Positions 1-46,102 of a DNA stretch of 64,000 bases are shown in pieces (position 1 is the first letter of the stretch; each line of letters opens with the position of its first letter). Made by a program: the position numbers and the translations under genes. The stretch lies in the IMG/VR virus record IMGVR_UViG_3300005518_000003, positions 14,564 through 78,563 of that record. The stretch is one strand, 5' to 3'. The stretch comes from a virus. Below the pieces are notes generated by a model. The model saw only the letters and a list, made by a program, of their open reading frames with translations, was not told the DNA's origin and ran no database searches.

Positions 1-687
1 GAACGCGATTCGGCACGGTCCCTGAAGACGAATGTCGAGTGCGTTCCAGTCGTGCGCATCGTCCCAGCGCGTTTTGAGATCGTAGAACGTATCGAGCTCA
101 CCCGTTACGCCCTCACCTGGTGGTTTTCCTCCGAGCGGAGGCGTGTACGCCGTGAGCTGCACGTAAAACGGCGTTGGTGTCGCAACGGTATTGAAGAGCA
201 ATCCAGGTCCAGCGGAATCGCGGAACGCGAGGTTCTGCTGATTTCCGCCGGTAAGCGGATCCATCCTTTGCTCTTGAAGTGGCGGACGACCATACGGTTC
301 GTTCTTCCCCATTAGGCGCATGTGCCACGAGATATTTCCGTCCGGCAGCTTGAAATTCGGCGTTGTTACCCACTGCTCGACGACGCGCGGTCCCGCAGGA
401 GGTCCTGTCACGTCGAGCCTGGTACCGAGCGACCAGCCCATGCGAAATCCGCGAAGCCAAACGTTGCACGCTTCCGGAAAATTCGCCGTGCAGAGCAAAA
501 AGAGGAAACGGTTCGTCGGACCGTGGGTGACGAGCGCAGGCACACGAAGGCCAATCGATGACGTTCCGCCGTACGGATCGCCAGCGAGACCCTGCAATGC
601 TTCGTCGATGCCGGTCGAGACGAGCTCGACTCGGCGTCTTGGAATCACCAGGCTTGGATATCGTCGGAGGTGAGCGACTGCGCCCAT
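1..687 (-). CDS. Putative virion structural protein, partial (runs off the left edge; absent from the ORF track)
   Basis: ATG at 687 with GGAGG upstream, overlapping the stop of 696..1364. The frame stays open to base 1: MGAVAHLRRYPSLVIPRRRVELVSTGIDEALQGLAGDPYGG... Confidence 0.7.
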   Translation of the reverse strand, partial: MGAVAHLRRYPSLVIPRRRVELVSTGIDEALQGLAGDPYGGTSSIGLRVPALVTHGPTNRFLFLLCTANFPEACNVWLRGFRMGWSLGTRLDVTGPPAGPRVVEQWVTTPNFKLPDGNISWHMRLMGKNEPYGRPPLQEQRMDPLTGGNQQNLAFRDSAGPGLLFNTVATPTPFYVQLTAYTPPLGGKPPGEGVTGELDTFYDLKTRWDDAHDWNALDIRLQGPCRIAF

Positions 688-695
688 TCAGCCTC

Positions 696-1364
696 CTACG
701 ACTTGCACGCCGTGATGTAGCAGTCCGGAATCTGGATTCCGCACATATCACGAAGTCGAAGCAGCGCTTCGCGATCCGTGATGTTGACGCCGTCGAACTT
801 GTCCGTGTCGGGCGTAAGCGTTTTGAACGTCATCACGACCGTGATTGGGAAGTCCGGGAGCTGGACACGCGCGAGAAAATCGACCTGGAGCTGCTGTTGG
901 TACGTCATCACCCAGATGCCGTTTGGAAATCCGGGTCCTGGCGTTCCGGCGGCTTTCGCGAGCGTCGAGAGTGGCGTGAACTTCGATGCGATCGACGGCC
1001 GCGGCATGCCGACGACGTTGATCTTCGCTTCGATGCCGCTTTGGAGCGAAAAGAAGAAGTCGCTCTGCGGTTGAAGCACGTTCTGCGGCGTGCGGTCGCG
1101 TGTGATCGTGTACTCGATCTCCTCGATGATCGTGTCCGCGACGATCTTCACGTCGCTTCCGACTTCCGGATTCAGATTGCGATCCGGGTTGTCGAACGTC
1201 GTACGGACGTTGATGTAGTAGGGCACGAACGGAATGCCCTGCGCGCGCGCGAGTGCGAGTCGCGGATACCCGAGTGAGAGAAATCGGTAGATGTCCCTCA
1301 GCCAGTGATCGATCCCGCATGCCCCGGCGCAGTCGCCGAATCCCTTCTTGAGCTCGTCATTCAT
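696..1364 (-). CDS. Putative structural protein (minor capsid-like, beta-rich)
   Basis: 222 aa with alternating hydrophobic strands, directly downstream of the capsid candidate. N-terminal KKGFG and Cys-rich termini. Function inferred from position. Confidence 0.5.
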   Translation of the reverse strand: MNDELKKGFGDCAGACGIDHWLRDIYRFLSLGYPRLALARAQGIPFVPYYINVRTTFDNPDRNLNPEVGSDVKIVADTIIEEIEYTITRDRTPQNVLQPQSDFFFSLQSGIEAKINVVGMPRPSIASKFTPLSTLAKAAGTPGPGFPNGIWVMTYQQQLQVDFLARVQLPDFPITVVMTFKTLTPDTDKFDGVNITDREALLRLRDMCGIQIPDCYITACKS

Positions 1365-1375
1365 GGGGTCTCTCG

Positions 1376-1416
1376 ACGCCTCAGCCCCTCGGCCTTTCGG
1401 CGTCGGGGCTTGGCGT
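1376..1416 (-). promoter_or_regulatory. Structured RNA element, copy 1 (3' of capsid candidate)
   Basis: ACGCC-A-AGCCCC-GAC-GCC-GAAA-GGC-CGA-GGGGCU-GA-GGCGU. Matches copy 2 with compensatory changes. An extra GCGGC-GAAA-GCCGC hairpin lies at 1422-1439. Confidence 0.75.
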
Positions 1417-1444
1417 AGCTAGCGCGGCTTTCGCCGCGTCAGCG

Positions 1445-2827
1445 TTAGATGTTGACGAAGCCGCACTCGCACTCCGAGCAGAGTGCATCGCGCGCGTCCG
1501 CGTTGTTGCGGAGGAACGTCATGAGGTCGCCGTCGAGCTCGCGGCCCTTGACGAGCATCGAGAGCTTGAGGTCGCCCATCTTGTAGAAGGCGCGCTCCGC
1601 GAAGACCGCCTGCGAGTAGTTGACGATCGCCGCGGGCGGCACGTCGAGCGATTGCTCGAGCATGACCGGCGAGCCGCTGACCGTTCCGCCGAAGTTGATG
1701 TTCGTCGCGTCGACGATGAACGGAGGAATCACGCCGTTGCCCTGACGGCCCTGCGTGACCGAGAGGTAGTCGCGCATGATGTCGCCCTGGGTGTCGTCGA
1801 CCTGCTGGAGGACGAGACCGATCGGGATGCCTGCGCCGATGATGTACGGCAAATCGAGCTTTCGGAACTCGCTGTTGCCGCGGAGCATGTGACGGAGGTC
1901 CATGCCGCCGTAGGTGACGGGCGCGAGCTCGAACGCGCGCGACGGACGGAATTCACCGACCGGTACGCCGCCGACCGTGAGCACGCCCTCGCGGATGAAG
2001 TCGATCTTGAGGAAGTCGAACGCCGTTCCGAGCGAGTCGTAGTAGTCGTTCGTGCGACGAATCTCGGCGAGAACTGCGTCCTCGCTGAGACCCGACGAGC
2101 CGTCCTGAGCGTTCGGCGGCATGTACGCCGTGTGACGGAGGATTTCGTCGAGGATGTTCCACTTCGTGCCGATCGCCCAGCGGAGATCGTACGCGCGCAC
2201 GAGGTGCCACGCGACGTAGTTGGCCCACGCACCCCACTGAAGGATGGCAGGACGCATGAACTGCGTCGGCGTCTGACCGTCGAAATTGTCACCGAGGGCT
2301 CCGTTCACGATGTCGGCGACGGTGAAGACATCGGGGCTCGGCGGCTTCGCTTGGCCGACGACCGGGTGCGTCCACGCGTTGCCGAGAATCGACCACGACT
2401 TCGGCTCGGGTTCGAGGTGAAATCCGATCGCGCACGCGAGCATGTGGGTGTTGAGCTCGCCGTTCTGCGGCATCGTCGATTCGACGAATGCCACACCTTC
2501 GACGCTCTTCGAATTTCCGAAGAGATCGATCTCGCTCGAGAAGTTCTTCTCGATCGCCTGGTCGGTGATCGGGCCGACGAGCGTCCAGCGCGTTTGATGG
2601 ATCGTGTCCATCGCGTAGGACGCGCAGTCCATCGAGCTCTTGAGGAGGTTCGTGACGCCAACCGCGCCAAGACCCTTCTTCACGCCGCCTTCGTAAGAGC
2701 GGACCTTCTCGATGCTGATCGGCTCGCCAAGGCCGACTTTCTTGATCTCGATCTCCCGCTTGATTTGGCGGAACTTCGGGCGGAACGGGTGTTTCGGAGT
2801 CGACGGTTTGGCAAGTGCGGTGTCCAT
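1445..2827 (-). CDS. Candidate major capsid protein (non-HK97, possibly jelly-roll)
   Basis: 460 aa, strong GAGGAGA RBS, strongly biased codon use, beta-rich, flanked by paired RNA elements. Basic N-terminal arm with two GLG sites. Fold not verified. Confidence 0.45.
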   Translation of the reverse strand: MDTALAKPSTPKHPFRPKFRQIKREIEIKKVGLGEPISIEKVRSYEGGVKKGLGAVGVTNLLKSSMDCASYAMDTIHQTRWTLVGPITDQAIEKNFSSEIDLFGNSKSVEGVAFVESTMPQNGELNTHMLACAIGFHLEPEPKSWSILGNAWTHPVVGQAKPPSPDVFTVADIVNGALGDNFDGQTPTQFMRPAILQWGAWANYVAWHLVRAYDLRWAIGTKWNILDEILRHTAYMPPNAQDGSSGLSEDAVLAEIRRTNDYYDSLGTAFDFLKIDFIREGVLTVGGVPVGEFRPSRAFELAPVTYGGMDLRHMLRGNSEFRKLDLPYIIGAGIPIGLVLQQVDDTQGDIMRDYLSVTQGRQGNGVIPPFIVDATNINFGGTVSGSPVMLEQSLDVPPAAIVNYSQAVFAERAFYKMGDLKLSMLVKGRELDGDLMTFLRNNADARDALCSECECGFVNI

Positions 2828-2890
2828 GCTGTTCTCCTCTGCTCTCGTGGTTGCCGCAGCCGGGTCACGAGGTGCAGTTTGGTTTTTTCA

Positions 2891-2932
2891 ATGCCTCAGC
2901 CCCTCGGGCTTGCGCCGTTGGGGCTCTGGCAC
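2891..2932 (-). promoter_or_regulatory. Structured RNA element, copy 2 (5' of capsid candidate)
   Basis: GUGCC-AG-AGCCCC-AAC-GGC-GCAA-GCC-CGA-GGGGCU-GA-GGCAU, GNRA loop, covaries with copy 1. Confidence 0.75.
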
Positions 2933-2947
2933 GCTATGTCGAAGCGG

Positions 2948-4684
2948 TTACTCGGCCGCTTCGTCGTTGCGACGGTGTCTCGACGTTCCGGGGAACCGGA
3001 GCGAGGAGTTGTCCTCTTCCACCACGAGTCCGAGACCGCGCGCCGCGCTGTCGAGAACCTGCGGATGGAATTGTCCGAGCGTCGCGAAGCTGCCGCGATG
3101 CTTGGCGATGAGCTGATCGGCGTACTTGCGCTGATCCGGTGTCGCATGTCCTGCCGCATGCGCAGCGAGCACTTCGCGATTCTTTCGAAGCGCGACGTAG
3201 GCTTCTCCGTGCGAGCGTAGGACGTCCGTTGCTCCCGAAACGTCGCCGAGTCCACGGACTCCCACCGGAGCGTACGCGGAAACCGGAGGGCTTTGTGGCG
3301 TCGTCGGAACCATGATGCCCGGAGGCATTTGTTCCGGCGGAACTTGTGGCTGACGCGAAATCGCCGGAGGCGGCACGAATCCGCCTGGCGGGGTGTACGG
3401 GCCTTGATTCACGACGGGCGGATATCCTCCGCCCGGTGGAATCGTCGGATGCGGACCGCCTTGTGGAAGTTGCATTTGCGGCATCACGCTCGGCCCGGTT
3501 GAAGGACCGGACGGAATCATGCTGCGACATCCGCAAGAACCGCCGAGGCCAGGGTACTGACCGCAGGTCGAGCACGGGGCTCCGGCGAGACCGACCGCCG
3601 TGCGCTGTCCGATTTCTCCCGAGAAAAGCTTCTTCCCGGTCGAGTCGGATGCGCTGTCCTTGAAGAGGTACGCCGCGAGATCGTCGACGGCTTTTCCGAC
3701 GAGACGAACGGCTGCGCCGAATCCGAAGAACTGAAGCGCGCTGCGCCCCATCGGCGATCGAATGAACTGCGCGACGACGAGCGGTGTTCCGGCCACGGCG
3801 ACGCCCGCACCAACGCGCGGAAGGAAGTCGTCCATGAGCGGAGCTTCGATGAAGCGCATCGCGAGCGCTTGACCTTTGTCGTCCTTGCGTTCTCGCATCG
3901 TCACGAGACGATCGATCACGTCGGCAGCGGTGTAACCGATGGCGCCCGTGACGAGGCCGACGACGAGCTCCCAGCCAGTGACCGGGTTCTCCATCGCTCC
4001 GCGACGGGAGTGACGACGGCGACGGAGACGCTCACCCGTGATGTGTCCGACGAGGCGCGTGCGGTAGCGCTTGCCGTGCGACTTGCCTCCGCGGCGACGT
4101 GTGAAACGTCCGCGACGGGTGCGACGCACCTGGCGCGGGAACTCGCGCGCACGCGCGCGACGACGACGACCACCTCGACGGCGACGGCGGCGGCGCGGAG
4201 CTTCGGCTGCACGCGCGTAGCGGCGGCGACGGCGGCGGCGCGGAGCTTCTCGAGAACGACGTGCGCGACCTCGACGACGGCGACGGCGGCGCGGAGCTTC
4301 CTCACGCGATTGACGACGACGACGACGACCACCCTTGCGACGTTTGCGGGCCATGTGCACGGTCTCCTTGGAATGAGAACGGCGTCTCGCCCGCACGCGA
4401 GATCGTTTTCTTCGCTTGAGTGAACCGCGACGGCGGCGCTTCGTCAAGCCCTCTTCTTTCGCATGACGACGGCGACGGCGTTTGCCGGCACGACGCTTTG
4501 CAGCTTTCCCGCCGAAACCAGCCTTGATCTGCGCAGGAGTCAGCCTGCGTCGTTTTCCTCTTCGCGCCATCTTTCTGCCTCGTTTTCGTGGGGTGTCTGC
4601 ATGAAGGACCACCGCCCGCCTCGAAGCAGCCTGCTCTGGCTCGGAACGCGCTCGCGAGAGAATCTCTCGATAGTCGACGGGCAT
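2948..4684 (-). CDS. Arg-rich (protamine-like) core/membrane polyprotein
   Basis: About 200 aa of poly-Arg tracts, then MENP, hydrophobic helices, a Cys cluster and a Pro/Gln-rich region with GLG sites. The start may be MARRGK at 4570. Confidence 0.7.
   Translation of the reverse strand: MPVDYREILSRARSEPEQAASRRAVVLHADTPRKRGRKMARRGKRRRLTPAQIKAGFGGKAAKRRAGKRRRRRHAKEEGLTKRRRRGSLKRRKRSRVRARRRSHSKETVHMARKRRKGGRRRRRQSREEAPRRRRRRRGRARRSREAPRRRRRRRYARAAEAPRRRRRRRGGRRRRARAREFPRQVRRTRRGRFTRRRGGKSHGKRYRTRLVGHITGERLRRRRHSRRGAMENPVTGWELVVGLVTGAIGYTAADVIDRLVTMRERKDDKGQALAMRFIEAPLMDDFLPRVGAGVAVAGTPLVVAQFIRSPMGRSALQFFGFGAAVRLVGKAVDDLAAYLFKDSASDSTGKKLFSGEIGQRTAVGLAGAPCSTCGQYPGLGGSCGCRSMIPSGPSTGPSVMPQMQLPQGGPHPTIPPGGGYPPVVNQGPYTPPGGFVPPPAISRQPQVPPEQMPPGIMVPTTPQSPPVSAYAPVGVRGLGDVSGATDVLRSHGEAYVALRKNREVLAAHAAGHATPDQRKYADQLIAKHRGSFATLGQFHPQVLDSAARGLGLVVEEDNSSLRFPGTSRHRRNDEAAE
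4180..4300 (-). repeat. Three tandem coding repeats, EAPRRRRRRR
   Basis: GGCGGCGCGGAGCTTC recurs three times on the + strand. Confidence 0.75.
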
Positions 4685-4759
4685 GACGGTGTTCCCACGT
4701 CACCCGCACGTAACGCTTGGGAGAAGTCTACGCGCAGATCGAGAGATTACGCAACAAGG

Positions 4760-5275
4760 TCACGGAACCACGATTCCGCGGTCATCGACGATGCATCCGT
4801 CCGGCAGCTCGATCCGATAGAACTGCTCCGAGGTCTTTCGACGCCAAAAGGAATAGAGCACCGCGGGTTTCTTGAACGCTCGGCTCTTGAATGGATAGAG
4901 AAGAAGCTGCGTGAGATTCTTCGCCTTGTTGAATTTATGGTGAAAGAACCCCGGATGCTTTGTGCCTGCTCGGTCGTAGTAGATCTCGTTGATCTCTCCG
5001 AGCTTGTGCCACGTGGAAATATTTTCTGGCGGAAGATCGATTCCGCCTTCGAACACGGTTGCGCTGCGACCAAAATAATCTGAACCTTCGTCGCTCTCTG
5101 TCTTTCCACGATCGAACTCACCGATCAGCAAGCTGCACGTGGGCCAGTCTTCACCACTCTCGTCGTAGAGCATCGCCGCGTCGCGAGCCGGCTTGACCCT
5201 CTTACTCCCGCTACCGAGACCGATTCCCGGAGCGCGTAGGTTGATCTCGATCTTGCGTCCCATGCAGATCAGCAT
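4760..5275 (-). CDS. Hypothetical virion-module protein
   Basis: 171 aa, co-oriented in the operon, GIGLGS near the N-terminus. Confidence 0.65.
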   Translation of the reverse strand: MLICMGRKIEINLRAPGIGLGSGSKRVKPARDAAMLYDESGEDWPTCSLLIGEFDRGKTESDEGSDYFGRSATVFEGGIDLPPENISTWHKLGEINEIYYDRAGTKHPGFFHHKFNKAKNLTQLLLYPFKSRAFKKPAVLYSFWRRKTSEQFYRIELPDGCIVDDRGIVVP

Positions 5276-5281
5276 GGAGCC

Positions 5282-6118
5282 TCACTTCGCTCGACGACTC
5301 GCCCACCAAGCTTTGATGTCGTCTTTGTACACAAAGCCGAGAACACCCGCGGTGACGACTGTTCCGCCAAGCATCCACCAACCCCACGGGAACTCCGGCC
5401 CGGCCTTTGGCGTAGTGCATCCGCCAGCCACGAACTTCTGCGCTTCGAGAAGATCGTCGCGCGCCTTCAAATCTTCCTTCGACCAGGGCGCGTTCGGATT
5501 CTGGATGTGATAGTCGACGATTTTGTTGTAGTCCGCATGCAATCGAATGAGCTCGCGATCACATTCGATCTTCGAAAGAATGTCGTCGATGACGAGCGAC
5601 GCGAAGTAGATCAAAGCGATGGCGATCGCTGTAACCGCAAGCATCTGCGCGATGACGGCAACGATCATCACGGGGATGAGCACCTCGATGTTTCCCGTCG
5701 AGTTGTTTTTCATCTGCGTGGCGTCAGCCGGCGTTGGCGTTTTGATTCCGCGTCGCTTCGCAATAATCTGAAGCGTACGAGCCAGCGTATCTGTCGGATT
5801 GTCCGAGCCGCCAGCGCTGATATTTTTGTCGTTCGCGAGCTTCGCGTTGATCGCACTCGAGACCATGAGCGTGATGAAGTCTTGCTTCGAAGGGTTGTCG
5901 TTCGCGATCCACTTTTTGGCGGTGGCTCTTGCATTCGCGGAGGCGAACGCCTGATCCCACGAGCGGCCCTGTACTTGTGCCCAAAACTGTTTGATGAGTA
6001 CGTACGGATTGAGCGAAAACGCAGGAAGTTTGAGCGCTGCGGTGACGTCGTCGATGGGTGCGCCAAGGCCCACGATGCGAAGTGCTTTCTGAAAATCTTC
6101 GTAGCGTACGAGGGTCAT
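5282..6118 (-). CDS. Membrane protein (internal and C-terminal TM segments)
   Basis: Long hydrophobic stretch plus C-terminal WGWWMLGGTVVTAGVLGFVY; GLGAP near the N-terminus. Confidence 0.7.
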   Translation of the reverse strand: MTLVRYEDFQKALRIVGLGAPIDDVTAALKLPAFSLNPYVLIKQFWAQVQGRSWDQAFASANARATAKKWIANDNPSKQDFITLMVSSAINAKLANDKNISAGGSDNPTDTLARTLQIIAKRRGIKTPTPADATQMKNNSTGNIEVLIPVMIVAVIAQMLAVTAIAIALIYFASLVIDDILSKIECDRELIRLHADYNKIVDYHIQNPNAPWSKEDLKARDDLLEAQKFVAGGCTTPKAGPEFPWGWWMLGGTVVTAGVLGFVYKDDIKAWWASRRAK

Positions 6119-7002
6119 CGGCTTCTCACCTTTCGAATGACGACGGCAGCGAGAGCCGACGCAGCGACGATACCACCGCCGACCACGGCCGCCTGCTTGT
6201 TCGTGAGCTTCGGAAGTGAGGGCAGATCGGGAAAGAAATCGCCAAGCTCACCGAGACCACGAACGAGACCGCGAATCGGCTTCGCGAGCTGCGGTGCTGC
6301 GGCTTGGACGCCCTGACCGACGTTATACCAAACCTGTTCTTGCGGATCCGGACCGAGCACCATCTCGCTCGGAAGTTGATGGTACTGGCCGTCACTTCCA
6401 AGACCAAGCACCGGTAGTGCTCCGATTCCGACGAACTCGGCTTGAAGACCCGCGTACGCCGGATCCTTCCACGGGTTCATGCGTGTCTCACGCGACGCCT
6501 TCGCCTTTTCACCCGCCGTGAAGCGCGGCGTGGTCGCATCGAGTGGAAACCATTTCCCATCTTCGAGTTTCACTTCGCAAATCACGTGCTGTTGATGCTC
6601 CGACCCGAAGAACTGGCGAACAATCTCAACTTCGAGTCCCGACGCCGCGCAAAGCGACGCGAGTGCCGTCACGAAGCCATCGCAATCCTCGATCGGAATG
6701 CACGCCAAGGCCCCTTCAACGCAGAGCGTGATCGGCGCGGCTTGGATCAACTCCGTGCCCGGTGGATCGTGCGTGTACCCAATGCTTCGTTTGCAATGGT
6801 TGAAGTGCGCGGTCGCTTTCTCTTTGTTCGTTCGCGGAAACATCGCTTGGCGAAGGATGTTGCCCGCGAAGCTGCGAAAAATTGGCATGGGAGCAGCCTC
6901 CCGAACCTTTTCGCAGATTTTGTGCAGCGACTTTTGGATCCCTTCCTCGCCGTCCGGATACGACTCACGAAGGTACGGAACGCCAGCGGAGGAGGTGTTC
7001 AT
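6115..7002 (-). CDS. Transglutaminase-like cysteine protease with C-terminal membrane anchor
   Basis: DCDG (Cys), QHVICEV (His) and WFPLDAT (Asp) in the order of the transglutaminase-core triad; C-terminal TM followed by a basic tail. Confidence 0.8.
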   Translation of the reverse strand: MNTSSAGVPYLRESYPDGEEGIQKSLHKICEKVREAAPMPIFRSFAGNILRQAMFPRTNKEKATAHFNHCKRSIGYTHDPPGTELIQAAPITLCVEGALACIPIEDCDGFVTALASLCAASGLEVEIVRQFFGSEHQQHVICEVKLEDGKWFPLDATTPRFTAGEKAKASRETRMNPWKDPAYAGLQAEFVGIGALPVLGLGSDGQYHQLPSEMVLGPDPQEQVWYNVGQGVQAAAPQLAKPIRGLVRGLGELGDFFPDLPSLPKLTNKQAAVVGGGIVAASALAAVVIRKVRSR

Positions 7003-7005
7003 CGA

Positions 7006-7398
7006 TCAGTCCTGAATGCACATATACGGGAAGTTCGGCATTCCCGTAGGAACGGAGTGATATCCCGGAGGACACGGATTCGCTTTCGGGTTGGAAAGAT
7101 TCTGCGCGAGCTGACTCGCAACATTTGCAAGATTGACGGGTTGCAATTGCGGCGGCGGCTGCGGTGGTGGCGTCGTATCGACCGGCTTGACGTTTCCAGG
7201 CGGACCGGTTGTCGTCGGCGTCGATCCAGGAGGAAGCGGTTGCTTTCCGCTCGCGATGTCCTCGGTCGTCGATTTCTTCGTAAGGTAGTTCGTGAGGAGA
7301 ACGGCGACGGTCGTTGTTATCGCGGCTGTTGCCCCGGCAATAAGGAGCTGCATCCCCGTGCTCTCGACCGGATTTCTTCGCGCTCTTCGCATCACCAC
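7006..7398 (-). CDS. Small membrane protein with RRNP leader
   Basis: MRRARRNPVES, then a TM helix and a Pro/Thr-rich tail. Confidence 0.7.
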   Translation of the reverse strand: MVMRRARRNPVESTGMQLLIAGATAAITTTVAVLLTNYLTKKSTTEDIASGKQPLPPGSTPTTTGPPGNVKPVDTTPPPQPPPQLQPVNLANVASQLAQNLSNPKANPCPPGYHSVPTGMPNFPYMCIQD

Positions 7399-7970
7399 AC
7401 CGGAAGCGGGTTGGCTGGGAGCAGAAACCCAATCTGCGAAGCGATGGCTTGAACGCTCTTATAGAGCGCGTTGATCAACTCCGAAGAGAGCTGGAGCCCT
7501 TTCATCGCGTTCACCCATGCGGCAACGTCGTTCAAGAGCTGTTGGTTATTCTGCTGGTTCGGCTGACCGTACGCTTGCGGATTCGGCGCGGGCGGTGGTG
7601 TTCCGCCTCCTCCGCCTCCGCCTGGTGGAAGAGTTTTTCCACCGCCACCCATTTGCGCTGAACTTGGACGCAGCGCGAAGTAGAGGCCCGTCCCTAGGAT
7701 GGCTGCACCGCCGAGACCACCGAGGATGTAGAGCGTCGATTTTTTCATGACCGGATTGCTGCGTGCACTTCTTCGGCGTGCGCGTCGACGTTTTACGTAG
7801 CGACGAGAATAATCGCGTCGATCAAGGCTTGCAGATCCACGCGAACCGTGAGGAAGCCATCGCAGAGCTTCTCGTTTGTTCCTCGCTTGGACGTAAAAGT
7901 ACGACGACCTGCTTTCCCCAGGATAGCGGTAGGTCACCTTGTACGATTTGAAATCCCACATCGCGGGCAT
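7392..7970 (-). CDS. Membrane protein with basic domain, RSNP motif and TM
   Basis: RBS before ATG 7970; RRRARRRSARSNPV, then TM ending GLYFALRP. Confidence 0.7.
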   Translation of the reverse strand: MPAMWDFKSYKVTYRYPGESRSSYFYVQARNKREALRWLPHGSRGSASLDRRDYSRRYVKRRRARRRSARSNPVMKKSTLYILGGLGGAAILGTGLYFALRPSSAQMGGGGKTLPPGGGGGGGTPPPAPNPQAYGQPNQQNNQQLLNDVAAWVNAMKGLQLSSELINALYKSVQAIASQIGFLLPANPLPVW

Positions 7971-8034
7971 CCCTCTTTCACGCACGACGCGCCCGCACGA
8001 GCGCCTGCATGTCGTCAGCATACGACGAGGTGGG

Positions 8035-9135
8035 TCACTTCGACAATTCGGCCAATTTGTTGATGGTGGTGGCGATCTTTATAACGACGCTCAGCGCAGA
8101 GAGTGCGGGGCCGAAAGCCAAGGAAAACACTGTTCCGATCGTGGCCATGAACATCTCGAAGACCATCCCAGCATCGACCACTTTGATGCATGGATTTACC
8201 TTCTCGTCGTGCGACTCGAACATGTCGATCAGTCCCGCGATCATCATTCCGCCAACAGACGCGTGGAGCATCGTGAGCGATTTTTGCGGAAGAGGTTTCC
8301 CTTCGCTGTCGGTCGTCGGAAGCGTTTTGTCGTTTTTCTTTGCGAGGTCGCGTGCAAATTGTGCGAGCCGATCGCGCGTCCACGCGGGCATTGCGAACAT
8401 AAAGAGCGAAGAAACATCACCTGGAAGAGAAAACGGCAACGTGATCCCGTATTTCTTCAACGCGGTGAGCACACCTCCGAAGTCTCCGCTGTCCAGTCCT
8501 TTTTTGATGCTGGCCTCCATCGAAGCGACGACCGCTGCGTTGAATGCTCCTGGATCTGCGTGAGGATCGATCGCGTTCCCAGCGTAGCGAATCTGTTTTC
8601 CTTTGTCTCGCGGGTCGCATTGGAGATCGACTCCACACGTCTTGATGATGTCAGGACCGCGATAGACCGTGTTGAAGAACGGGTAGGCCCAATCGTTTCC
8701 GAGCTGAACAACCGCTGCGGCCAACGTCTGGCAATGCGAATGACTCGCAAGTTCGTCGGTCGTGAATTTATTTTCTTTGTTGTAGAAGGCCGCCAGAATG
8801 AGATCGATCACTTTTACGCCGCCGTGCGTGAAGATTTTTCGAAACGCATCGGCTTGAAGAAAAATCGGCGTGCCATTCCCGAGTAGATCCGCCATGGCCG
8901 TCAGCCGTTTCGTAAGCGCTGCGATCTCGATTCCTCGAAGCACGGACACTTGTGCGTACGTCGAGCTCACGGCGAGCATGCTCTCGATCGCGGATTTTTT
9001 CTTTGGCCTTGTCGCCGCGTAGACGATTCCGCCGAAGAGAGCAACGCCAGCACCGATGCCACCGTAAACCGTGAGCTTCGGGTGCTTGTGATAGAAGCGC
9101 TTCGCACTCCTCTTGACGTCGCTGACGAGTTTCAT
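8035..9135 (-). CDS. Membrane-anchored protein
   Basis: N-terminal TM ending GGIVYAATRP and a hydrophobic C-terminus; 366 aa. Confidence 0.7.
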   Translation of the reverse strand: MKLVSDVKRSAKRFYHKHPKLTVYGGIGAGVALFGGIVYAATRPKKKSAIESMLAVSSTYAQVSVLRGIEIAALTKRLTAMADLLGNGTPIFLQADAFRKIFTHGGVKVIDLILAAFYNKENKFTTDELASHSHCQTLAAAVVQLGNDWAYPFFNTVYRGPDIIKTCGVDLQCDPRDKGKQIRYAGNAIDPHADPGAFNAAVVASMEASIKKGLDSGDFGGVLTALKKYGITLPFSLPGDVSSLFMFAMPAWTRDRLAQFARDLAKKNDKTLPTTDSEGKPLPQKSLTMLHASVGGMMIAGLIDMFESHDEKVNPCIKVVDAGMVFEMFMATIGTVFSLAFGPALSALSVVIKIATTINKLAELSK

Positions 9136-9443
9136 GACCGAGTCGCTGAAATCACACCACCGCCGCCACCGTTACTTCCGCCGCCACCGATCTGATTTCC
9201 GTGTTCATCGACCCACGACACGTTTGGAGAGTATGGAGCGAACGCTGCGTAGACTCCCGGAACAGCAGTGGGAGAGATCGTCGTTACGTTTGGCTTGGCT
9301 CCATCACCGCTTGTCGGTGGTCTCGTTCCTTGGGGAGAGACGATCTGCTTCGGCCTAGTGGCGTAGTAGACCGCCCCGCCGATGCCAGCCGCACCTGCGA
9401 GGAGTCCAACGATCCACGCTGCCTTCTTTGCACCCTTCGTCAT
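9132..9443 (-). CDS. Small membrane protein
   Basis: N-terminal TM ending GGAVYYATRP; Gly-rich tail. Confidence 0.7.
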   Translation of the reverse strand: MTKGAKKAAWIVGLLAGAAGIGGAVYYATRPKQIVSPQGTRPPTSGDGAKPNVTTISPTAVPGVYAAFAPYSPNVSWVDEHGNQIGGGGSNGGGGGVISATRS

Positions 9444-9455
9444 CCGGCAACGATA

Positions 9456-9644
9456 TCACTGGTCGGACACCGCCACCAAGATCGCGATCAGAGTGAGCGG
9501 CCAAAACGCGGAAACGAACATCGCTCCGATCGTTACTTCGACCAATTCTTCCGTCGTCGCGCGGTGTTTCCAGGGACGGATCACGGCCGCGCAGAGGCCC
9601 ATTGATCCAGTAAACCCGAGAAGCCAGATGTGAAAGATTGTCAC
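9456..9644 (-). CDS. Small two-TM protein
   Basis: GTG start just after the stop of 9647..11158; two hydrophobic segments. Confidence 0.5.
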   Translation of the reverse strand: MTIFHIWLLGFTGSMGLCAAVIRPWKHRATTEELVEVTIGAMFVSAFWPLTLIAILVAVSDQ

Positions 9645-9646
9645 GA

Positions 9647-11158
9647 TCAGAAGCCTCCCCAACCTCCTTCGCCTGAACCCGTCCCTGGATTTTGCGGAGG
9701 CTGCGGTGGTTGCTGCGGTTGAAGTTGTTGCATCGGCGGCGGCTGTTGAAATTGCGGTGTCTGCTCTTCTTCTTCGGGCGATCCGGCGAGACCACGACGC
9801 TTGGTGGCTTGAGCTTCGAGCCATGCAGCTCCCGCATCCATAAGCCTCTGCGACGGACGCGGATTCATGAGAAGCATCCCGAGCGGATCGACCTTGCCCG
9901 TTTCCTTGTCGCGAACGAGCTTCGCCTTGGTTCCGTCGTCCCACACCGAGGGCAGCTCGGTGATCTGGTACGGGAGATCGTCCTCTTCCTTCACCTCGGG
10001 CGGTGCAGGAAGCATTGGAACGGTCGTCGTCTCTTCCGGCTCTTCGGCCGCAAATCGTTCGCGCATCTTTTCACCGAACGCGACGTAGCGATCGAAAATC
10101 TTGAAACCCTGATCCATCGCCGTAAGCGGATCCATCTGCGTTGACGACGTTGGTGGAGCGCCGAGACCGGCTGCTTTGACGGCAGCGATCATCGCGGTCG
10201 CAAGACCTTCGACGGTCATCTGCGTGATCGGGGTTTGACCCGGAGGAGCTCCGACACCCGGTCGATGTTGTGGTTGTGGTGATTGCGGTTGCTGCCTCAG
10301 CCGCCGATTCTCTTCTTCGAGCGCAGCGAGACGCTTCTCGAGATCGGATTGCTGCGGCGGCGGAAACCCGTATTGAGGTGGGTAGCCGTAGGGCTGGTAG
10401 CCGTACGGAGCCGGAGGTTGCGGAGGTTGCTGCGGCTGCTGTTGCTGCGGCTGCTGCGGTGGTTGTCCAGGAGCAGCGGGGAGCCGGGGAATTTGGCCGA
10501 AGCCCGGTTGCGGGCCGTACTGGCTCGCCATTCGCTGTTGCCACTGGGCTTGACGAAGCGCGTTGATCTCGCCTTGCGACTGAAGCGAGATGTAGCCGTT
10601 GACGATGTACTGTCCGTTCGCTTTCCAGACGAACTGGAGCTCGTAGCGAGCCGGACCGCGCGCGATGTTGTGGTAGTAGTCCTCGACGTACTGTTTGATC
10701 GCCGTTGTCGGCGACATCTCTTGGTTGCCAACGACCGCGCTCGCCTCGAACGCATACCCAATGCTCTGACGCGGCGGCGGATCGATTCGAATCACGTTGA
10801 CGACGACGTCATACGCAGATCGTCCGTGCGCCTCGAGCCATTCGAGAACTTCGGGCCAAAGAACTTCTACTTCTCGGCTCGTCCACTTCGGAGCTCCGTC
10901 TGCACTCGCATCGAATCGATCAGGGATGGCTCCTGCTTTTCCGCTCGGTCTTCCAGGAGTTTTCGGAGCGCCAACACCCGTTTGAGTTGGACCGCGACGC
11001 CTGCCCGCGGGATGTGTTTTTTCTTTCTCTTGAGGTGGAGGCGTTGGAGGAGGAACGACCGGTGCTGTTTCAACTGGTACACCATTCGCTCCTTCCGGCG
11101 GCGGTTCCCAATCTGGTCCCTGACCCGGCGTTGCCGGATCTTGCGTTTCATTGTCCAT
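9647..11158 (-). CDS. Pro/Gln-rich protein (possible scaffold or tape-measure-like)
   Basis: 503 aa, low-complexity linkers, short coiled coil, repeated GVGAP/GLGAP. Confidence 0.7.
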   Translation of the reverse strand: MDNETQDPATPGQGPDWEPPPEGANGVPVETAPVVPPPTPPPQEKEKTHPAGRRRGPTQTGVGAPKTPGRPSGKAGAIPDRFDASADGAPKWTSREVEVLWPEVLEWLEAHGRSAYDVVVNVIRIDPPPRQSIGYAFEASAVVGNQEMSPTTAIKQYVEDYYHNIARGPARYELQFVWKANGQYIVNGYISLQSQGEINALRQAQWQQRMASQYGPQPGFGQIPRLPAAPGQPPQQPQQQQPQQPPQPPAPYGYQPYGYPPQYGFPPPQQSDLEKRLAALEEENRRLRQQPQSPQPQHRPGVGAPPGQTPITQMTVEGLATAMIAAVKAAGLGAPPTSSTQMDPLTAMDQGFKIFDRYVAFGEKMRERFAAEEPEETTTVPMLPAPPEVKEEDDLPYQITELPSVWDDGTKAKLVRDKETGKVDPLGMLLMNPRPSQRLMDAGAAWLEAQATKRRGLAGSPEEEEQTPQFQQPPPMQQLQPQQPPQPPQNPGTGSGEGGWGGF

Positions 11159-11182
11159 GTTGGTCCCTTTTCTGAAATTCGT

Positions 11183-12358
11183 TTACGCGACGAGAGGTGT
11201 CGCACTCGTGACCGGCGTGATCGCGATCTGCTGAATCGTTCCCTGAAGGAACTGAAAAAACGCTTCTGCTTGCGCTTGCGTATTTCCAGTAACGGGCGGA
11301 AAGAATTCCTCGAACTGAGGTGTGATCGTGAACGTCGTTCCCGGAAAGTAGCCTTCGCCTTCGGCGATCGTGTCGATGCGACCGAGACCCATCCGTGCAT
11401 GCGCTGTTGCACCGGTTCCTGGAGCGACGCCCGTGTCGCGAATGAGAATCGATGGAACGGTGACGTAGTTGTCACCAGGATCGGTGACCGTAATGGCCGT
11501 GATGGGAAATCCAGGGCCAGCCCCAACCGTGACGACACCTTGCGCAGGAAGACCTTCGGCCATGACGGCGAAGAGTTTCGCAGGACGGCGAGGAGCGATT
11601 CCGGTCGTCGTCGTAATGAAGACATCCGGCACCGATTCGTAGACGCGACCCATATCGACGATCGTGATCGACTGAACGCGACCTCGGGCGTCGAGCTGAA
11701 GAATTCCCTGCGCAGGAATCGGTGGCGAATTTCCTTCCGGACCGCCACCCTGAATGTTGAGGATCGCTGTTGCCGGGTCATATCCCTCGCCTGGATCCGC
11801 GATGTTGATGTAGCGAACCGCTCCGCCACGTCCACCCTTACGCGTGTCGAAGTTGAAGCCCGCAGGCGGAAGGCCTCCAAGCCACGTGATCCTCGTCGTC
11901 GAGGCCGTGTATCCGGCCCCTCCGGTGTCGAGCGCAGTTTCGTACGCAGCCATGTACGCCCTGAAGAGCGCATCACGTTGGGTCGGTCTCCTCGGAACGA
12001 CGTTTCCGTTCACGATGGGAGCGAGCGGTTCGCGCTGGTTGTTGTTCGCCCGAATGATCGGCGGAAGAATGAAATCACGACCGCGATTCGCAACGTCCAC
12101 GGTTACCTGCTGGATGCGACTTGTGTTCGTGATCGTCGGCGGGTTCAAGAGCGCGGCGACTGAAGGCTCAAAGCCGAGCACGATCGTACGCACGATTGGA
12201 TTCACGGCAGGGATCGTGATGGAGTCCGAAATGATCCGCAGGCCGAGCGCCTGAAGAATGTCTGGCGGGATGGGGGCGCTCGCAATGAACGGCTGAATCT
12301 TGGTCGAGCTGATCCCGAGCGCCTGGACCGTGTAAACGAGCGTGACCTGGGTACCCAT
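11183..12358 (-). CDS. Beta-repeat virion surface/spike-like protein
   Basis: Repeats of I/V-x-I/V-x-D-x-G-x-G-Y...P-x-V-x-I, typical of phage structural beta modules. Confidence 0.55.
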   Translation of the reverse strand: MGTQVTLVYTVQALGISSTKIQPFIASAPIPPDILQALGLRIISDSITIPAVNPIVRTIVLGFEPSVAALLNPPTITNTSRIQQVTVDVANRGRDFILPPIIRANNNQREPLAPIVNGNVVPRRPTQRDALFRAYMAAYETALDTGGAGYTASTTRITWLGGLPPAGFNFDTRKGGRGGAVRYINIADPGEGYDPATAILNIQGGGPEGNSPPIPAQGILQLDARGRVQSITIVDMGRVYESVPDVFITTTTGIAPRRPAKLFAVMAEGLPAQGVVTVGAGPGFPITAITVTDPGDNYVTVPSILIRDTGVAPGTGATAHARMGLGRIDTIAEGEGYFPGTTFTITPQFEEFFPPVTGNTQAQAEAFFQFLQGTIQQIAITPVTSATPLVA

Positions 12359-12370
12359 GCCGCGAGACTA

Positions 12371-12850
12371 CTATGTGCTAGGAGGCGAGACCACCGCCGT
12401 GGTCGGTTGACCGTTTTCTACTTCTTCGTCTTCGTCGAGAACCTCGTCGAATTCGGCTGCGTATCCACCCAAATCGGCCGCAAGCGAATCGAAAAGGGTA
12501 TCCGTGTCGAGGTACCGCGTGAGGCTATGTGTCGGTGCCGTTTTCTGGACGGTCCACCTCACCGGGAAACGTTCCGGTGCCGGCTTCTCGGGAACTCCGT
12601 AGATTCGCGCGCAAACTTCGTCTTCGAAGATCGCCACGATCTTGTGCTCCGCGCTGAGCGGTGAAGTCTCTCCGACCTGGAACTTCTGAAGCTCTCGCTT
12701 GAAGTTGAACCAGTCGAACGAAAACGTCTGCGGCACGTTGGACGGATACCCCTCTTCGCCTTCTGGACGCTCGACGTTCGCACGCACGCAGATCCGTCCC
12801 CAAATGTCAGCTTTCTTCGATTGTTCTTCCGGCATGTTGGTCCCTTTCAA
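12371..12850 (-). CDS. Hypothetical protein
   Basis: Co-oriented ORF with RBS and acidic tail. Confidence 0.6.
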   Translation of the reverse strand: MKGTNMPEEQSKKADIWGRICVRANVERPEGEEGYPSNVPQTFSFDWFNFKRELQKFQVGETSPLSAEHKIVAIFEDEVCARIYGVPEKPAPERFPVRWTVQKTAPTHSLTRYLDTDTLFDSLAADLGGYAAEFDEVLDEDEEVENGQPTTAVVSPPST

Positions 12851-12864
12851 AAAGGGAGCTTACT

Positions 12865-14814
12865 CTACCGGGAACGCACCTTGTGAAGCTTTTTGTCGGC
12901 GAACGAATAGAACTCGCCTTCGCCCATCACCACGTGGTCGATGAACGCGATTCCAGAGGCTTTGCAAGCATTTTTCATTGCTTTGGTCAGGTCGGCATCG
13001 GCATCCGAAAAATCCGCTCCGCCGCTCGGATGGTTGTGCAGGATCGCAAGCCCTTTCGCGCCGCGATCGATGGCCGGCTTGAGGACGTCAGCAGGATCGA
13101 CGGCAACGCGATCGCGCTGACCTACGTGAACGATGGCGACCCCGCGGAGGTCGGAATGGATATCGAGCAGGATCGCGCAGAGGTGCTCCTTGTCCTGCTT
13201 CGAAGCCCACGGATGCATCATGTTGTAGATGTCGCGTGAATTCTTGATCGGACCGATTTGTTGCGCGACCTCGCGAATCTCTCGAAAGTCATCCGCGTTG
13301 CGCTCGACCTTCACGAACGGAATTCCATCCGTCACCTCAACGGGATTCTCACCCACGTGTTTTGCATGTGGCCAGTGCTGTCGCGCGCTTGCTCGTACTT
13401 GATCTTCAGATTCACCACGAATGATGTTGATCGAGTACCCGTGACGATCACGCGCAACCGCTTCCCACTCTTGGCGGACTTCGTCGTACGCGATCTCTAC
13501 GGTCACGACCTTTCGCTCGCGTCCCTCGGCCGCCCCGCCACATCCGTGCTCGCAGCCGCATTCGTTCGCTTCACGCGAGATGCCACCAGGAACACCTCGT
13601 TGCGGATCCAACTTAGACAAAGCCTCGGCATTGCTCGGGAGCTTCCTCACCCGCTTACCAGTGTTTGGCCAGTGATAGAGCCCCTTCTTGTAAAAGAGCT
13701 CGCGCTCGGTGTAGCTGCCGTCATCCCGCGGCGTGTACGTCCGAACGACCCATTTCTTTTTGTCGTCCCAATACTTCACGAAGTGCGTCGCTGAGAACAT
13801 TCCACGATGAGCTTCATGGCGAAGCGCATCGTCGATGTTGTTGAAGTCGCGCGCTTCACGTGGCCCGCTCTCTGGAGGAAGTAGTGGAGGAGTCTCCGGT
13901 CCCGAGTGGAGAATGAGATGCTCCGATTTCATCTTGCCTTTAGAGCCGTCGCGCCAGAGAACGGTGATCTTTTCGCCTTCGACGGAGATCACGACGCCGG
14001 GATTGAGTTTCTTTGCAAGCCTTGGAAGAACGCCAGGCGCAAGCTGCACGTCGTCACCGCGTTGGAAATCGCGCGCCTGGACTGGGTTCTCGCGGAGCAA
14101 CCGATCGACGCCCGACTTCGCCTGTCGCAACGCCTCACCACGTGTGGTCGCACCCCAATGACCTCCACGAACGATGGCCGACCACCACGTGGTTCCGTCG
14201 TCCATGAGATATTTTTCGAGTCGAATGTTCTCGCCGTGGTAGTCGACCGTCTCGCGTTGTTGGATTCGATCGCGCGCCTCGACGGGGTTCTCGCGAACAA
14301 ACGAGACGCTCGGACGCACCGCAGGCTGCGAATTCGCAAAAGCTTCTGCTTCGCCTTTCGTCTTGAACGGGCCGTGATACTCGCTGCTCCGATCACTTGG
14401 TCTGCGGCCGTATGCGTACCAGACCGTGCTCCCGTCTTTCGGACGCTCTGATGGATGCATCTGATCACTCGAAACGATTCGCCAAGGAATCGGTTGCCTC
14501 CATGCCGGCTGAGGACCGCGACGAGGATTCTCTCGCGCACCCGGACGTCGGATCAGTCCAATGTGCACCGCGTAGTCGTACGCGCTCTCGTGCATCTTTC
14601 GTGGATTGAGGAAGCCGTCTTGAATCGCTTCGCCGACTTGATCATCCCACCACTCAATGATGGTCGCGTCGTTCTTCGCGTTGATCAGCTCGACGTGTGC
14701 TCGGTCACGCTCCTCCCAGGTCGAGAGCCGCGTGTCACTGAGAGACAATTCGGGCACGGAATGACGTCCACGGCGACGGGCTTCTTCGGCGGCGGCGGGA
14801 TTCATTCGAGGCAT
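12865..14814 (-). CDS. Multi-domain (polyvalent) protein with C-terminal RadC/JAB domain
   Basis: C-terminal E...HNHPSG...SDAD...DHVV JAB motif; small domains separated by RENP/GENP linkers. Confidence 0.85.
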   Translation of the reverse strand: MPRMNPAAAEEARRRGRHSVPELSLSDTRLSTWEERDRAHVELINAKNDATIIEWWDDQVGEAIQDGFLNPRKMHESAYDYAVHIGLIRRPGARENPRRGPQPAWRQPIPWRIVSSDQMHPSERPKDGSTVWYAYGRRPSDRSSEYHGPFKTKGEAEAFANSQPAVRPSVSFVRENPVEARDRIQQRETVDYHGENIRLEKYLMDDGTTWWSAIVRGGHWGATTRGEALRQAKSGVDRLLRENPVQARDFQRGDDVQLAPGVLPRLAKKLNPGVVISVEGEKITVLWRDGSKGKMKSEHLILHSGPETPPLLPPESGPREARDFNNIDDALRHEAHRGMFSATHFVKYWDDKKKWVVRTYTPRDDGSYTERELFYKKGLYHWPNTGKRVRKLPSNAEALSKLDPQRGVPGGISREANECGCEHGCGGAAEGRERKVVTVEIAYDEVRQEWEAVARDRHGYSINIIRGESEDQVRASARQHWPHAKHVGENPVEVTDGIPFVKVERNADDFREIREVAQQIGPIKNSRDIYNMMHPWASKQDKEHLCAILLDIHSDLRGVAIVHVGQRDRVAVDPADVLKPAIDRGAKGLAILHNHPSGGADFSDADADLTKAMKNACKASGIAFIDHVVMGEGEFYSFADKKLHKVRSR

Positions 14815-14829
14815 CTTACACCGAGTGTA

Positions 14830-15012
14830 CTACCCCTGCTTCTGCGGCGTCGGATCGACCTTGTGGGCGATGAGAGTGATCCCTTGACCCCTGAAATAAA
14901 GCTTGGCGCTCGGTGATTTGAGCGTGTCGTCGAGCTTTTTCGTGAGCATCGCAGCTTGAGCGTCATCCTTCGCATCGAAGACCGCTTCCAGTTTCATCAC
15001 ATACCTCGGCAT
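14830..15012 (-). CDS. Small hypothetical protein
   Basis: MPRYVMKL start after GGAGGA, overlapping the upstream stop. Confidence 0.55.
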   Translation of the reverse strand: MPRYVMKLEAVFDAKDDAQAAMLTKKLDDTLKSPSAKLYFRGQGITLIAHKVDPTPQKQG

Positions 15013-15509
15013 CACTTCCTCCTCTTTCTCCTCAGTTTTTTCACACCTTGTGGAGAACCGTGTCGCGGTGGTCCGCCAGCACATTCGCGCACCAATCGAT
15101 GCGCTTCGTCGATCACGAATGGGTGTTTCCTCCAACCGAATTTCGTGTGGTAGAGGAATTTCATCATCGCGTTGTAGGCAATGGCCACGAGGTGACGCCG
15201 CGGGTCGCCCTCAAAGTGATCGTACGGCACGCCGGTCACGTACTCGACGTAGTGCTTGAGCACGTGGTTGAGCGGATCCGCATCCTCAGTGAGCTCGCTC
15301 AACGAATACTGGAAGCAGTCTTCGTACTTCTCGTCAGCGTACGCGCCGATCTCCGCCATCATCAACAAAAACTCGGGATTGATGGCGTCGTAGCGGTAGC
15401 GAACCTTGTTACGTGTTGCTTTGACTAGCTTTCCCCCCATCCGAACGGGATCGAGCATGTCGCGAACGGTTTCTTCCACCTGCGGACTGAATTTTTTCTT
15501 TCGTTTCAT
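15012..15509 (-). CDS. dATP/dGTP diphosphohydrolase-like (DUF5664) protein
   Basis: K.RYD.I.PE.L...A....Y...KY and H...Y..G...D......HL..IAYNAM pattern. Confidence 0.65.
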   Translation of the reverse strand: MKRKKKFSPQVEETVRDMLDPVRMGGKLVKATRNKVRYRYDAINPEFLLMMAEIGAYADEKYEDCFQYSLSELTEDADPLNHVLKHYVEYVTGVPYDHFEGDPRRHLVAIAYNAMMKFLYHTKFGWRKHPFVIDEAHRLVRECAGGPPRHGSPQGVKKLRRKRRK

Positions 15510-45871: not shown

Positions 45872-46102
45872 TCATCGCCGGACGACGACCATTCCGAGAC
45901 CGATGAGATCGTAGATGCCGCCAACCACCTTAGTCAGAGCTTTGCCTTTGACAATCGCGTACGTTCCCGATCCGAGAAGAAGAGCGCCGCCAAGTTGCGG
46001 AGCTCCCAGCACGGCGGAAGCGATACCAACGAGACCACCGATCGTGAGGACGGAATCGACGTTCTCGGGCGGATTCCGTTTTGCTTTTCTTCGACGTCGC
46101 AT
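45872..46102 (-). CDS. Small multi-TM protein with KRNP leader
   Basis: MRRRRKAKRNPP followed by hydrophobic helices. Confidence 0.65.
   Translation of the reverse strand: MRRRRKAKRNPPENVDSVLTIGGLVGIASAVLGAPQLGGALLLGSGTYAIVKGKALTKVVGGIYDLIGLGMVVVRR

Follow-up and report, generated by a model that had tools for sequence, protein, structure and literature searches.

Introduction

Adenovirus pVII and pX/Mu are Arg-rich, low-complexity core proteins that are thought to neutralise packaged DNA, and large eukaryotic viruses other than adenovirus also possess basic core proteins. The capsid proteins of small icosahedral viruses bear arginine-rich N-terminal arms. Bacterial viruses with an internal membrane are known mainly from small genomes of about 10-20 kb, with PM2 at about 10 kb. 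The excerpted text of a review of these viruses describes no dedicated DNA-condensing protein for them (PMC6356626). Here, the gene P0001 is analyzed, which lies in a 64,000-nucleotide window (bases 14564-78563 of the 78,563-bp IMG/VR record IMGVR_UViG_3300005518_000003) and whose predicted product joins a polycationic tail to a membrane domain. The record carries a 90-bp direct terminal repeat, and its sequence is contained in rhizosphere metagenomes. No RNA data set is listed as containing this stretch.

The nearest described design is that of SPV1 (Portogloboviridae; archaeal host, 20 kb), which has an icosahedral shell, a lipid layer inside it, and a nucleoprotein core of VP1 and circular double-stranded DNA (dsDNA) (PMC8459092). 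A tailless jelly-roll shell, an internal membrane, and protein-condensed DNA would be common to SPV1 and the uncultured virus considered here. However, VP1 is a separate, filament-forming nucleocapsid protein without a membrane anchor, and no homology to P0001 was found. P0001 also resembles P3 and P6 of PM2 (Corticoviridae), virus-coded membrane proteins that adjoin the capsid gene (PMC6356626). Unlike P0001, P3 and P6 are not given a polycationic tail in the excerpted text of that review (PMC6356626), and no homology to them was found either.

Like pVII and pX/Mu, P0001 is an Arg-rich, low-complexity polypeptide of an apparently non-tailed dsDNA virus, encoded among structural genes. Unlike the adenovirus core proteins, its polycation is fused to a multi-helix membrane anchor, and its family drifts from Arg-rich to Lys-rich. 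Searches of Pfam, PHROG, NCBIfam, and PDB sequences gave no homology to pVII, Mu, V, or any other named core protein, and, in a further difference from adenovirus, an adenain-type protease was not detected by Pfam or PHROG among the matches listed. The tail is comparable to the capsid arms of small icosahedral viruses in being basic, predicted to be disordered, and apparently selected for charge over sequence, but it extends for about 200 residues and belongs to a membrane protein, not to a capsid protein. In the literature searched, no large tailless virus of the bacterial type is described that has, among its core genes, one for a polycationic tail of about 200 residues on a multi-helix anchor.

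Translation of the basic tail

Gene callers use three different starts for this family, often losing the tail entirely, an annotation that the present analysis corrects. In the record, translation is called from M111 (P0003, 468 amino acids), and in several close homologues from the Met of a Met-Glu-Asn-Pro (MENP) sequence; in distant homologues, the gene calls include long basic extensions. The frame on the 5' side of MENP was tested in loci from a profile search, which recovered a single viral locus together with 16 loci from metagenomes. Identity to the query is 29-40%, or 48% in the case of one short, partial match. Sixteen loci were examined, with L016 left aside as a truncated match only. 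In all 16, the frame 5' of MENP is open for 200-305 codons or until the contig ends; Arg and Lys make up about 30-48% of the encoded residues, and acidic ones are few. Every time, the open frame starts with a conserved N-terminal motif (N-motif) a few codons after the preceding stop.

The MENP codon itself has few marks of a start site. Of 12 members, only 4 have a Shine-Dalgarno (SD)-like motif ahead of it, and in L015 the codon is CTC (Leu). In relatives' contigs from other samples aligned on the tract, indels come in pairs or add up to a number divisible by three (-1/+1, +2/+1, +3, and an exchange of 82 bases for 85). This evidence is weak, as the contigs are short, and only frame-keeping indels were used because the poly-Arg coding stretch (4116-4307) draws unrelated GC-rich pieces. 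An Arg tract that is left untranslated, with the real protein beginning at MENP, would agree with the near invariance of this Met and with the MENP starts called for P0005-P0008, P0010, P0011, and about 30 representatives. Such a start is scarcely credible, however, and already contradicted, given the open basic frame, the conserved N-motif, the Leu codon of L015, the sparse SD-like motifs, and the fact that P0004 and the relatives' contigs run on upstream in frame. Conservation of the frame and of the N-motif thus indicates that the basic tail is translated as part of one protein.

A preliminary description of this stretch, based on its letters, had proposed an Arg-rich segment fused to a membrane domain in an open reading frame (ORF) at exactly the coordinates recovered here. 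The proposal of one protein stands, as a conserved member of the virion module, and the two doubts raised with it, a start at MENP and an Arg tract missing from homologues, are answered by the start-site data above and by the basic tract that homologues keep in frame. All seven motifs that it named are present with the spacing given (HAKE 74-77, HSKE 104-107, QSRE 125-128, RSRE 143-146, RAAE 158-161, RARE 178-181, and GAME 229-232), followed by ENP (232-234) and hydrophobic helices. Its CSTC...CGC corresponds to a C-x2-C-x9-C-x-C cluster at residues 371-386, and its Pro-rich tail to residues 393-478.

The tract between residues 39 and 230 (192 amino acids) is 51% Arg+Lys with Arg runs of up to seven, and residues 1-230 carry a net charge of +94. 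A 45-bp tandem repeat within it is the product of a recent expansion of the tail by duplication. One or two copies of a motif, T/S-x-x-Q-basic-A-A-x-basic-N-hydrophobic-K-K-A, recur within the otherwise unconserved basic tails of L004, L005, L013, L006, P0015, and P0017 and at window residues 48-65; it may form a small helical element.

Family size and apparent selection on charge

A profile of the membrane domain (alignment A4) was searched against 1.84 billion representatives and matched 358 clusters (50% identity) at E <= 1e-3, 249 of them at E <= 1e-10. Among the matches listed, an extension of at least 60 residues is called in 99 of 146 members with the domain. These 99 extensions have a median length of 202 residues, an Arg+Lys fraction of 0.39 (0.26-0.49), and an Asp+Glu fraction of 0.03. 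Their net charge ranges from +22 to +124 (median +66) and their Arg/(Arg+Lys) ratio from 0.20 to 0.91. Because the sequence and the Arg:Lys ratio drift while basicity is kept, the comparison points to selection on charge and composition, not on sequence.

The family appears to be widespread and undescribed and to belong to the core genes of soil viruses that are large (about 73-79 kb), apparently tailless, and rich in membrane proteins. These viruses, common in soil, rhizosphere, and wetland metagenomes, would be much larger than the known internal-membrane bacterial viruses. Pfam, PHROG, and NCBIfam hold no family for P0001, for the adjoining capsid candidate P0002, or for 10 homologues of P0001. 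A PDB sequence search with P0001 gave only low-complexity matches or matches with E > 0.001, and an ESM Atlas look-up was uninformative (scores of 0.84). Among 185,579 reference prokaryote genomes, a search with the membrane-domain profile gave no prophage copy and hence no host clue. Literature searches returned no description of the family.

Start sites and the N-terminal motif

Two nested products, starting at M1 and at M39 and thus with and without the N-motif, are likely, as inferred from the conservation of their start sites. The M39-type Met occurs in the context S-[S/P]-M-A-[K/R]-[K/R] and is conserved in every member for which DNA is available (equivalents in L002, L004-L006, L008, L011-L014, L017, and L018). 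GGAG, GAGG, AGGA, or AAGG stands at the proper distance before it in 12 of 12 members. SD-like motifs of this kind precede 14-28% of codon positions in the tracts, which gives a joint probability of about 3e-9 when members are treated as independent. The calls for the 84 long-tailed representatives are divided, with about 34 beginning at the N-motif and at least 36 at the M39-type Met.

In relatives, the N-motif reads M-x-D-Y-L-x-x-hydrophobic ... P-E-H-A-A ... P-V-F-Y-E, and in the window protein M-P-V-D-Y-R-E-I-L ... P-E-Q-A-A ... V-V-L-H-A-D. Y5, A19, and A20 are invariant or nearly so among the 13 members of alignment A5. A targeting peptide common to other proteins was considered and rejected, the motif being unique to this ORF within the genome. 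A promoter and terminator scan around the gene found nothing exceeding chance. Coordinates of the gene, its parts, and its conserved neighbours are collected in Table 1.

Table 1. Positions in the window of P0001, its segments, and adjacent genes of the module.
Feature	Coordinates	Strand	Details
P0001, whole ORF	2948..4684	minus	578 amino acids; stop codon (2948-2950) included
N-terminal motif, residues 1-38	4571..4684	minus	conserved; alignment A5, 13 full-length members
Candidate internal start, M39	4568..4581	minus	GAGG at 4578-4581, ATG at 4568-4570
Polycationic tract, residues 39-230	3995..4570	minus	84 R, 14 K, 9 E, 0 D
45-bp tandem repeat	4176..4282		2.4 copies; encodes E-A-P-R7 units
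Junction G-A-M-E-N-P, residues 229-234	3983..4000	minus	N233 and P234 invariant (alignments A1, A3, A4)
Predicted membrane domain, residues 235-345	3650..3982	minus	AlphaFold2 model, hydropathy, segment charge
Cys cluster C371-x2-C374-x9-C384-x-C386	3527..3574	minus	flanked by invariant G379-L-G381
Pro-rich spacer, residues 393-478	3251..3508	minus	predicted disordered; 26 Pro in 86 residues (30%)
Helical C-terminal domain, residues 479-578	2951..3250	minus	pLDDT 94-98 for 482-550 (helical bundle)
Capsid candidate P0002	1445..2827	minus	460 amino acids; directly downstream, 120 bp away
171-amino-acid protein	4760..5275	minus	conserved; always directly upstream
Transglutaminase-like (papain-fold) protein	6115..7002	minus	C-terminal transmembrane helix; conserved in module

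The Asn-Pro junction and the membrane domain

An invariant Glu-Asn-Pro joins the tail to the anchor. Among 84 representatives, the third residue before the junction bond (P3) is Ala in 59, and the second (P2) is Met in 58 and Leu in 13. In the six-frame ORFs of this genome and related loci, Asn-Pro is enriched 18-fold in a context of at least three Arg/Lys in eight residues, Asn-Pro, and a transmembrane (TM)-like segment. Five members of the P0001 family and at least nine other small proteins share this layout of a basic stub, Asn-Pro, and a TM segment, which in the small proteins usually lies right at the N-terminus (e.g., M-R-R-A-R-R-N-P..., M-A-R-R-N-P..., and M-R-R-R-R-K-A-K-R-N-P...). The simplest reading would be a shared anchor module with a cytoplasmic basic stub in which Asn-Pro caps the helix, P0001 being the case where the stub has expanded to 230 residues. 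Asn-Pro may also have a role in cleavage: bonds of this kind are prone to break, and mu1 of reovirus undergoes autocleavage at Asn-Pro. Skipping at a 2A-like NPGP site was rejected, as E-N-P precedes a hydrophobic residue and the sequence is not N-P-G-P.

ORFs with the stub layout occur in the window at 7006-7398, 7392-8021, and 45872-46102, all on the minus strand. Five more are on the plus strand of L002 (including 6599-7210 and 14640-15041), and one is in L014.

In an AlphaFold2 model built on a 19-sequence alignment, the membrane domain has three long helices (237-262, 284-305, and 311-340), after which come a Cys/Pro region predicted to be disordered and the confidently modelled C-terminal helical bundle. 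Helices 1 and 2 are TM-like, with best 17-residue hydropathies of 1.6 and 1.85, and helix 3 is amphipathic. Within the 110 positions after Asn-Pro, a set of Gly, Asp-Arg, Arg, and R-x-A-L-Q-x-F-G residues is invariant. Helices 1 and 2 are joined by a loop of net acidic charge, and their flanks are basic. The likely topology is therefore a hairpin that leaves both the tail and all of the C-terminal part on one side of the membrane, the cytoplasmic one. A wide structural search with this domain returned generic membrane helical bundles only (Z of about 8).

The helical C-terminal domain is confined to the closer subfamily, and a Foldseek search of its model against BFVD found nothing significant. 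The acidic extreme C-terminus, of the type aromatic-x-W/G ... D-E-A-A-E (2951-2995 in the window, minus strand), is kept more widely, even in proteins without the domain (alignment A3).

The [A/S]-x-Glu bias and the question of processing

The phiKZ gp175 and T4 gp21 head proteases cut after S/A/G-x-E or L/I-x-E. The preliminary description had seen the poly-Arg blocks of P0001 as punctuated by [A/S]-x-Glu and proposed that the protein is cut there into short Arg peptides. The punctuation proved real across the family. In residues 40-233 of the window protein, Ala, Ser, or Gly stands two residues before 7 of 10 Glu, a count reached by 46 of 20,000 shuffles; three of these seven sites fall within the 45-bp repeat and are not independent. 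Most homologues taken singly have no significant excess. In the pooled tails of 84 representatives, with the ENP site excluded, Ala or Ser is at -2 of Glu in 167 of 414 cases (40%) against 93.8 expected (22.7%; z = 9.1), counts that shared descent inflates. At offset -1, z is 3.9, and other offsets are null.

Only two Glu sites are kept in position; one is the last Glu ahead of ENP, and the other is the A-[M/L]-E-NP junction. The last Glu lies a median of 14 residues upstream (interquartile range 5-19), has Ala or Ser at P3 in 51 of 70 cases, and often follows hydrophobic-hydrophobic-A-A, as in V-A-A-E or I-T-G-E. Some members, such as P0012 and P0014, have one or two Glu in the entire tail. 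The T4-type prohead protease (Peptidase_S77, PF03420) was absent from the 78.5-kb genome in searches that did not include a phiKZ gp175-specific model. No adenain-type (clan CE) or other recognised maturation protease is among the matches listed for about 90 scanned ORFs. Within the module, protease-like folds are confined to the transglutaminase-like protein and a JAB domain.

P0001 shares with phiKZ gp175 and T4 gp21 substrates a family-wide excess of Ala or Ser two residues before Glu, and it differs from those systems in the missing Peptidase_S77, in the lack of HK97-type head genes among those found, and in sites that are mostly unconserved in position. In a processed precursor, a maturation protease specific for Glu would cleave behind [A/S]-x-Glu, and possibly at A-M-E/N-P as well, freeing the tail from the anchor and making Arg peptides, as is the case for adenovirus pVII/Mu and phiKZ/T4 head proteins. 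Such processing would account for a bias that is largely specific to one offset and for the Ala or Ser preferences at the last Glu and the junction. The transglutaminase-like papain-fold protein and the RadC-like JAB protein, both conserved in the same module, would be available to such a scheme. Yet with only two positionally conserved sites, nearly Glu-free members, three window sites from one duplication, counts inflated by descent, and no Peptidase_S77, other recognised prohead, or adenain-type protease found with the models searched, processing of this kind is unlikely. Cleavage into many short Arg peptides, as first proposed, is unsupported.

Proposed function and alternatives

The composition of the tail and its gene context, on which any reading in terms of DNA binding or condensation rests, are consistent with a polycation tethered to the virion membrane that binds viral DNA there and neutralises it, a function to which we give about an even chance. 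The cytoplasm-side N-terminal segment of a membrane protein would have expanded into a disordered polycation of about 200 residues. This tail would bind viral dsDNA, neutralise its charge, and tether it to the virion membrane, while the Pro-rich arm and the C-terminal domain would extend to another virion component. The working unit would be the whole tail, not short peptides. By a rough estimate, about 1,670 copies would neutralise the genome's 157,126 phosphates, and therefore a copy number on the order of capsid subunits would matter. If the tail binds DNA, it would form a physical link between genome and membrane, and one protein could be used to probe both how about 157,000 phosphate charges are neutralised and which membrane face meets the DNA at assembly.

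Several observations weigh against this function. P0001 matches no DNA-binding domain or known family, and the [A/S]-x-Glu bias is unexplained by simple charge neutralisation. We infer the virion membrane itself, and the model of the capsid candidate is weak (pLDDT 62, Z = 5.1). The positive-inside rule governs membrane-protein topology, and under it the tail is predicted to stay on the cytoplasmic face. In the PRD1 pathway, a vesicle of the cytoplasmic membrane is pinched off and filled later (PMC6356626). On that route, the cytoplasmic face would end up toward the capsid and not toward the DNA-filled lumen. In the assembly model for PM2, a phage-specific membrane patch interacts with nucleic acid during particle formation (PMC6356626), and a membrane-anchored DNA binder would fit that model better than the PRD1 pathway.

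A tail that points outward could bind acidic phospholipids or the inner capsid surface and act as membrane-capsid glue, lipid recruiter, or size determinant. The predicted cytoplasmic face, which would be outermost in a PRD1-type vesicle (PMC6356626), and the adjoining capsid candidate agree with this arrangement, but the charge on the roughly 200 disordered residues, +66 (median) to +124, far exceeds the needs of lipid or capsid contacts, and the basic N-terminal arm of the capsid candidate would repel the tail; we regard it as quite unlikely. A genome-delivery or pilot protein, whose Arg-rich segment exits with the DNA and aids crossing of the host envelope or shields the DNA from nucleases, is very unlikely. 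It would draw on the ability of Arg-rich peptides to cross membranes and on the membrane association of P0001 within the virion module, and it conflicts with the many Lys-rich members (Arg/(Arg+Lys) down to 0.20) and with the lack of any tie to a vertex or entry apparatus. More speculatively, the genome could be organised on the membrane, with the long tail and the short Arg stubs lining the DNA-facing leaflet. With tails synthesised on the cytoplasmic side, this arrangement would require a membrane that closes on the DNA by PM2-like co-assembly instead of a PRD1-type fill, and Asn-Pro would be a possible release point, cut by the protein itself or by a protease, of a membrane-delivered "pro-protamine". 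This extension of the membrane-tethered polycation is tentative and rather doubtful.

Neighbouring genes and virus type

The adjacency to the capsid candidate, which had been pointed out before, is found in all related loci whose length allows it to be seen. Gene order is kept across loci as transglutaminase-like protein, 171-amino-acid protein, P0001, 460-amino-acid capsid candidate, and proteins of 222 and 289 amino acids. The model of the capsid candidate, with a predicted local distance difference test (pLDDT) score of 62, is a beta-sandwich and not an HK97 fold. Its best match is the single-jelly-roll capsid chain of HCIV-1, a membrane-containing virus (Z = 5.1, root-mean-square deviation 3.4 over 127 residues), a weak match that is tied with many unrelated sandwiches. 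A Foldseek search of this model against PDB gave nothing significant, and neither did a viral-contig search with P0002 return any match. The N-terminal arm of the candidate is basic.

A HerA/FtsK-type ATPase of 593 amino acids (18494-20275, minus strand) matches phrog_2666 ("terminase large subunit", packaging) with E = 4.8e-17. Elsewhere in the genome, terminase, portal, HK97 capsid, and tail families are not among the matches listed for about 90 scanned ORFs, in pooled scans that list 25 of 29 Pfam families and 25 of 38 PHROG families. Proteins with a single TM segment are encoded by many of the neighbouring genes. This gene content can reasonably be read as that of a tailless particle with a membrane.

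The transglutaminase-like protein has, by eye, Cys, His, and Asp in the expected contexts D-C-D-G-F, Q-H-V-I-C-E-V, and L-D-A-T; its candidate roles are those of protease, cross-linking enzyme, and wall hydrolase. Its gene is also found two genes upstream of the P0001 homologue in L002, L003, L005, L014, and L018. The RadC-like JAB domain ends a 649-amino-acid protein (12865-14814, minus strand) further upstream in the structural module, and this protein is conserved in related loci (L002, 378-839; L014, 356-979). Pooled Pfam and PHROG scans of L019 (genome positions 1-14700) and the rest of the window, which do not assign individual ORFs to matches, additionally list a Cpn10/GroES-like protein, a D12 adenine methyltransferase, and a TPR protein. 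They also include a resolvase/integrase-like protein at genome positions 4-642 and several HNH and endonuclease VII genes.

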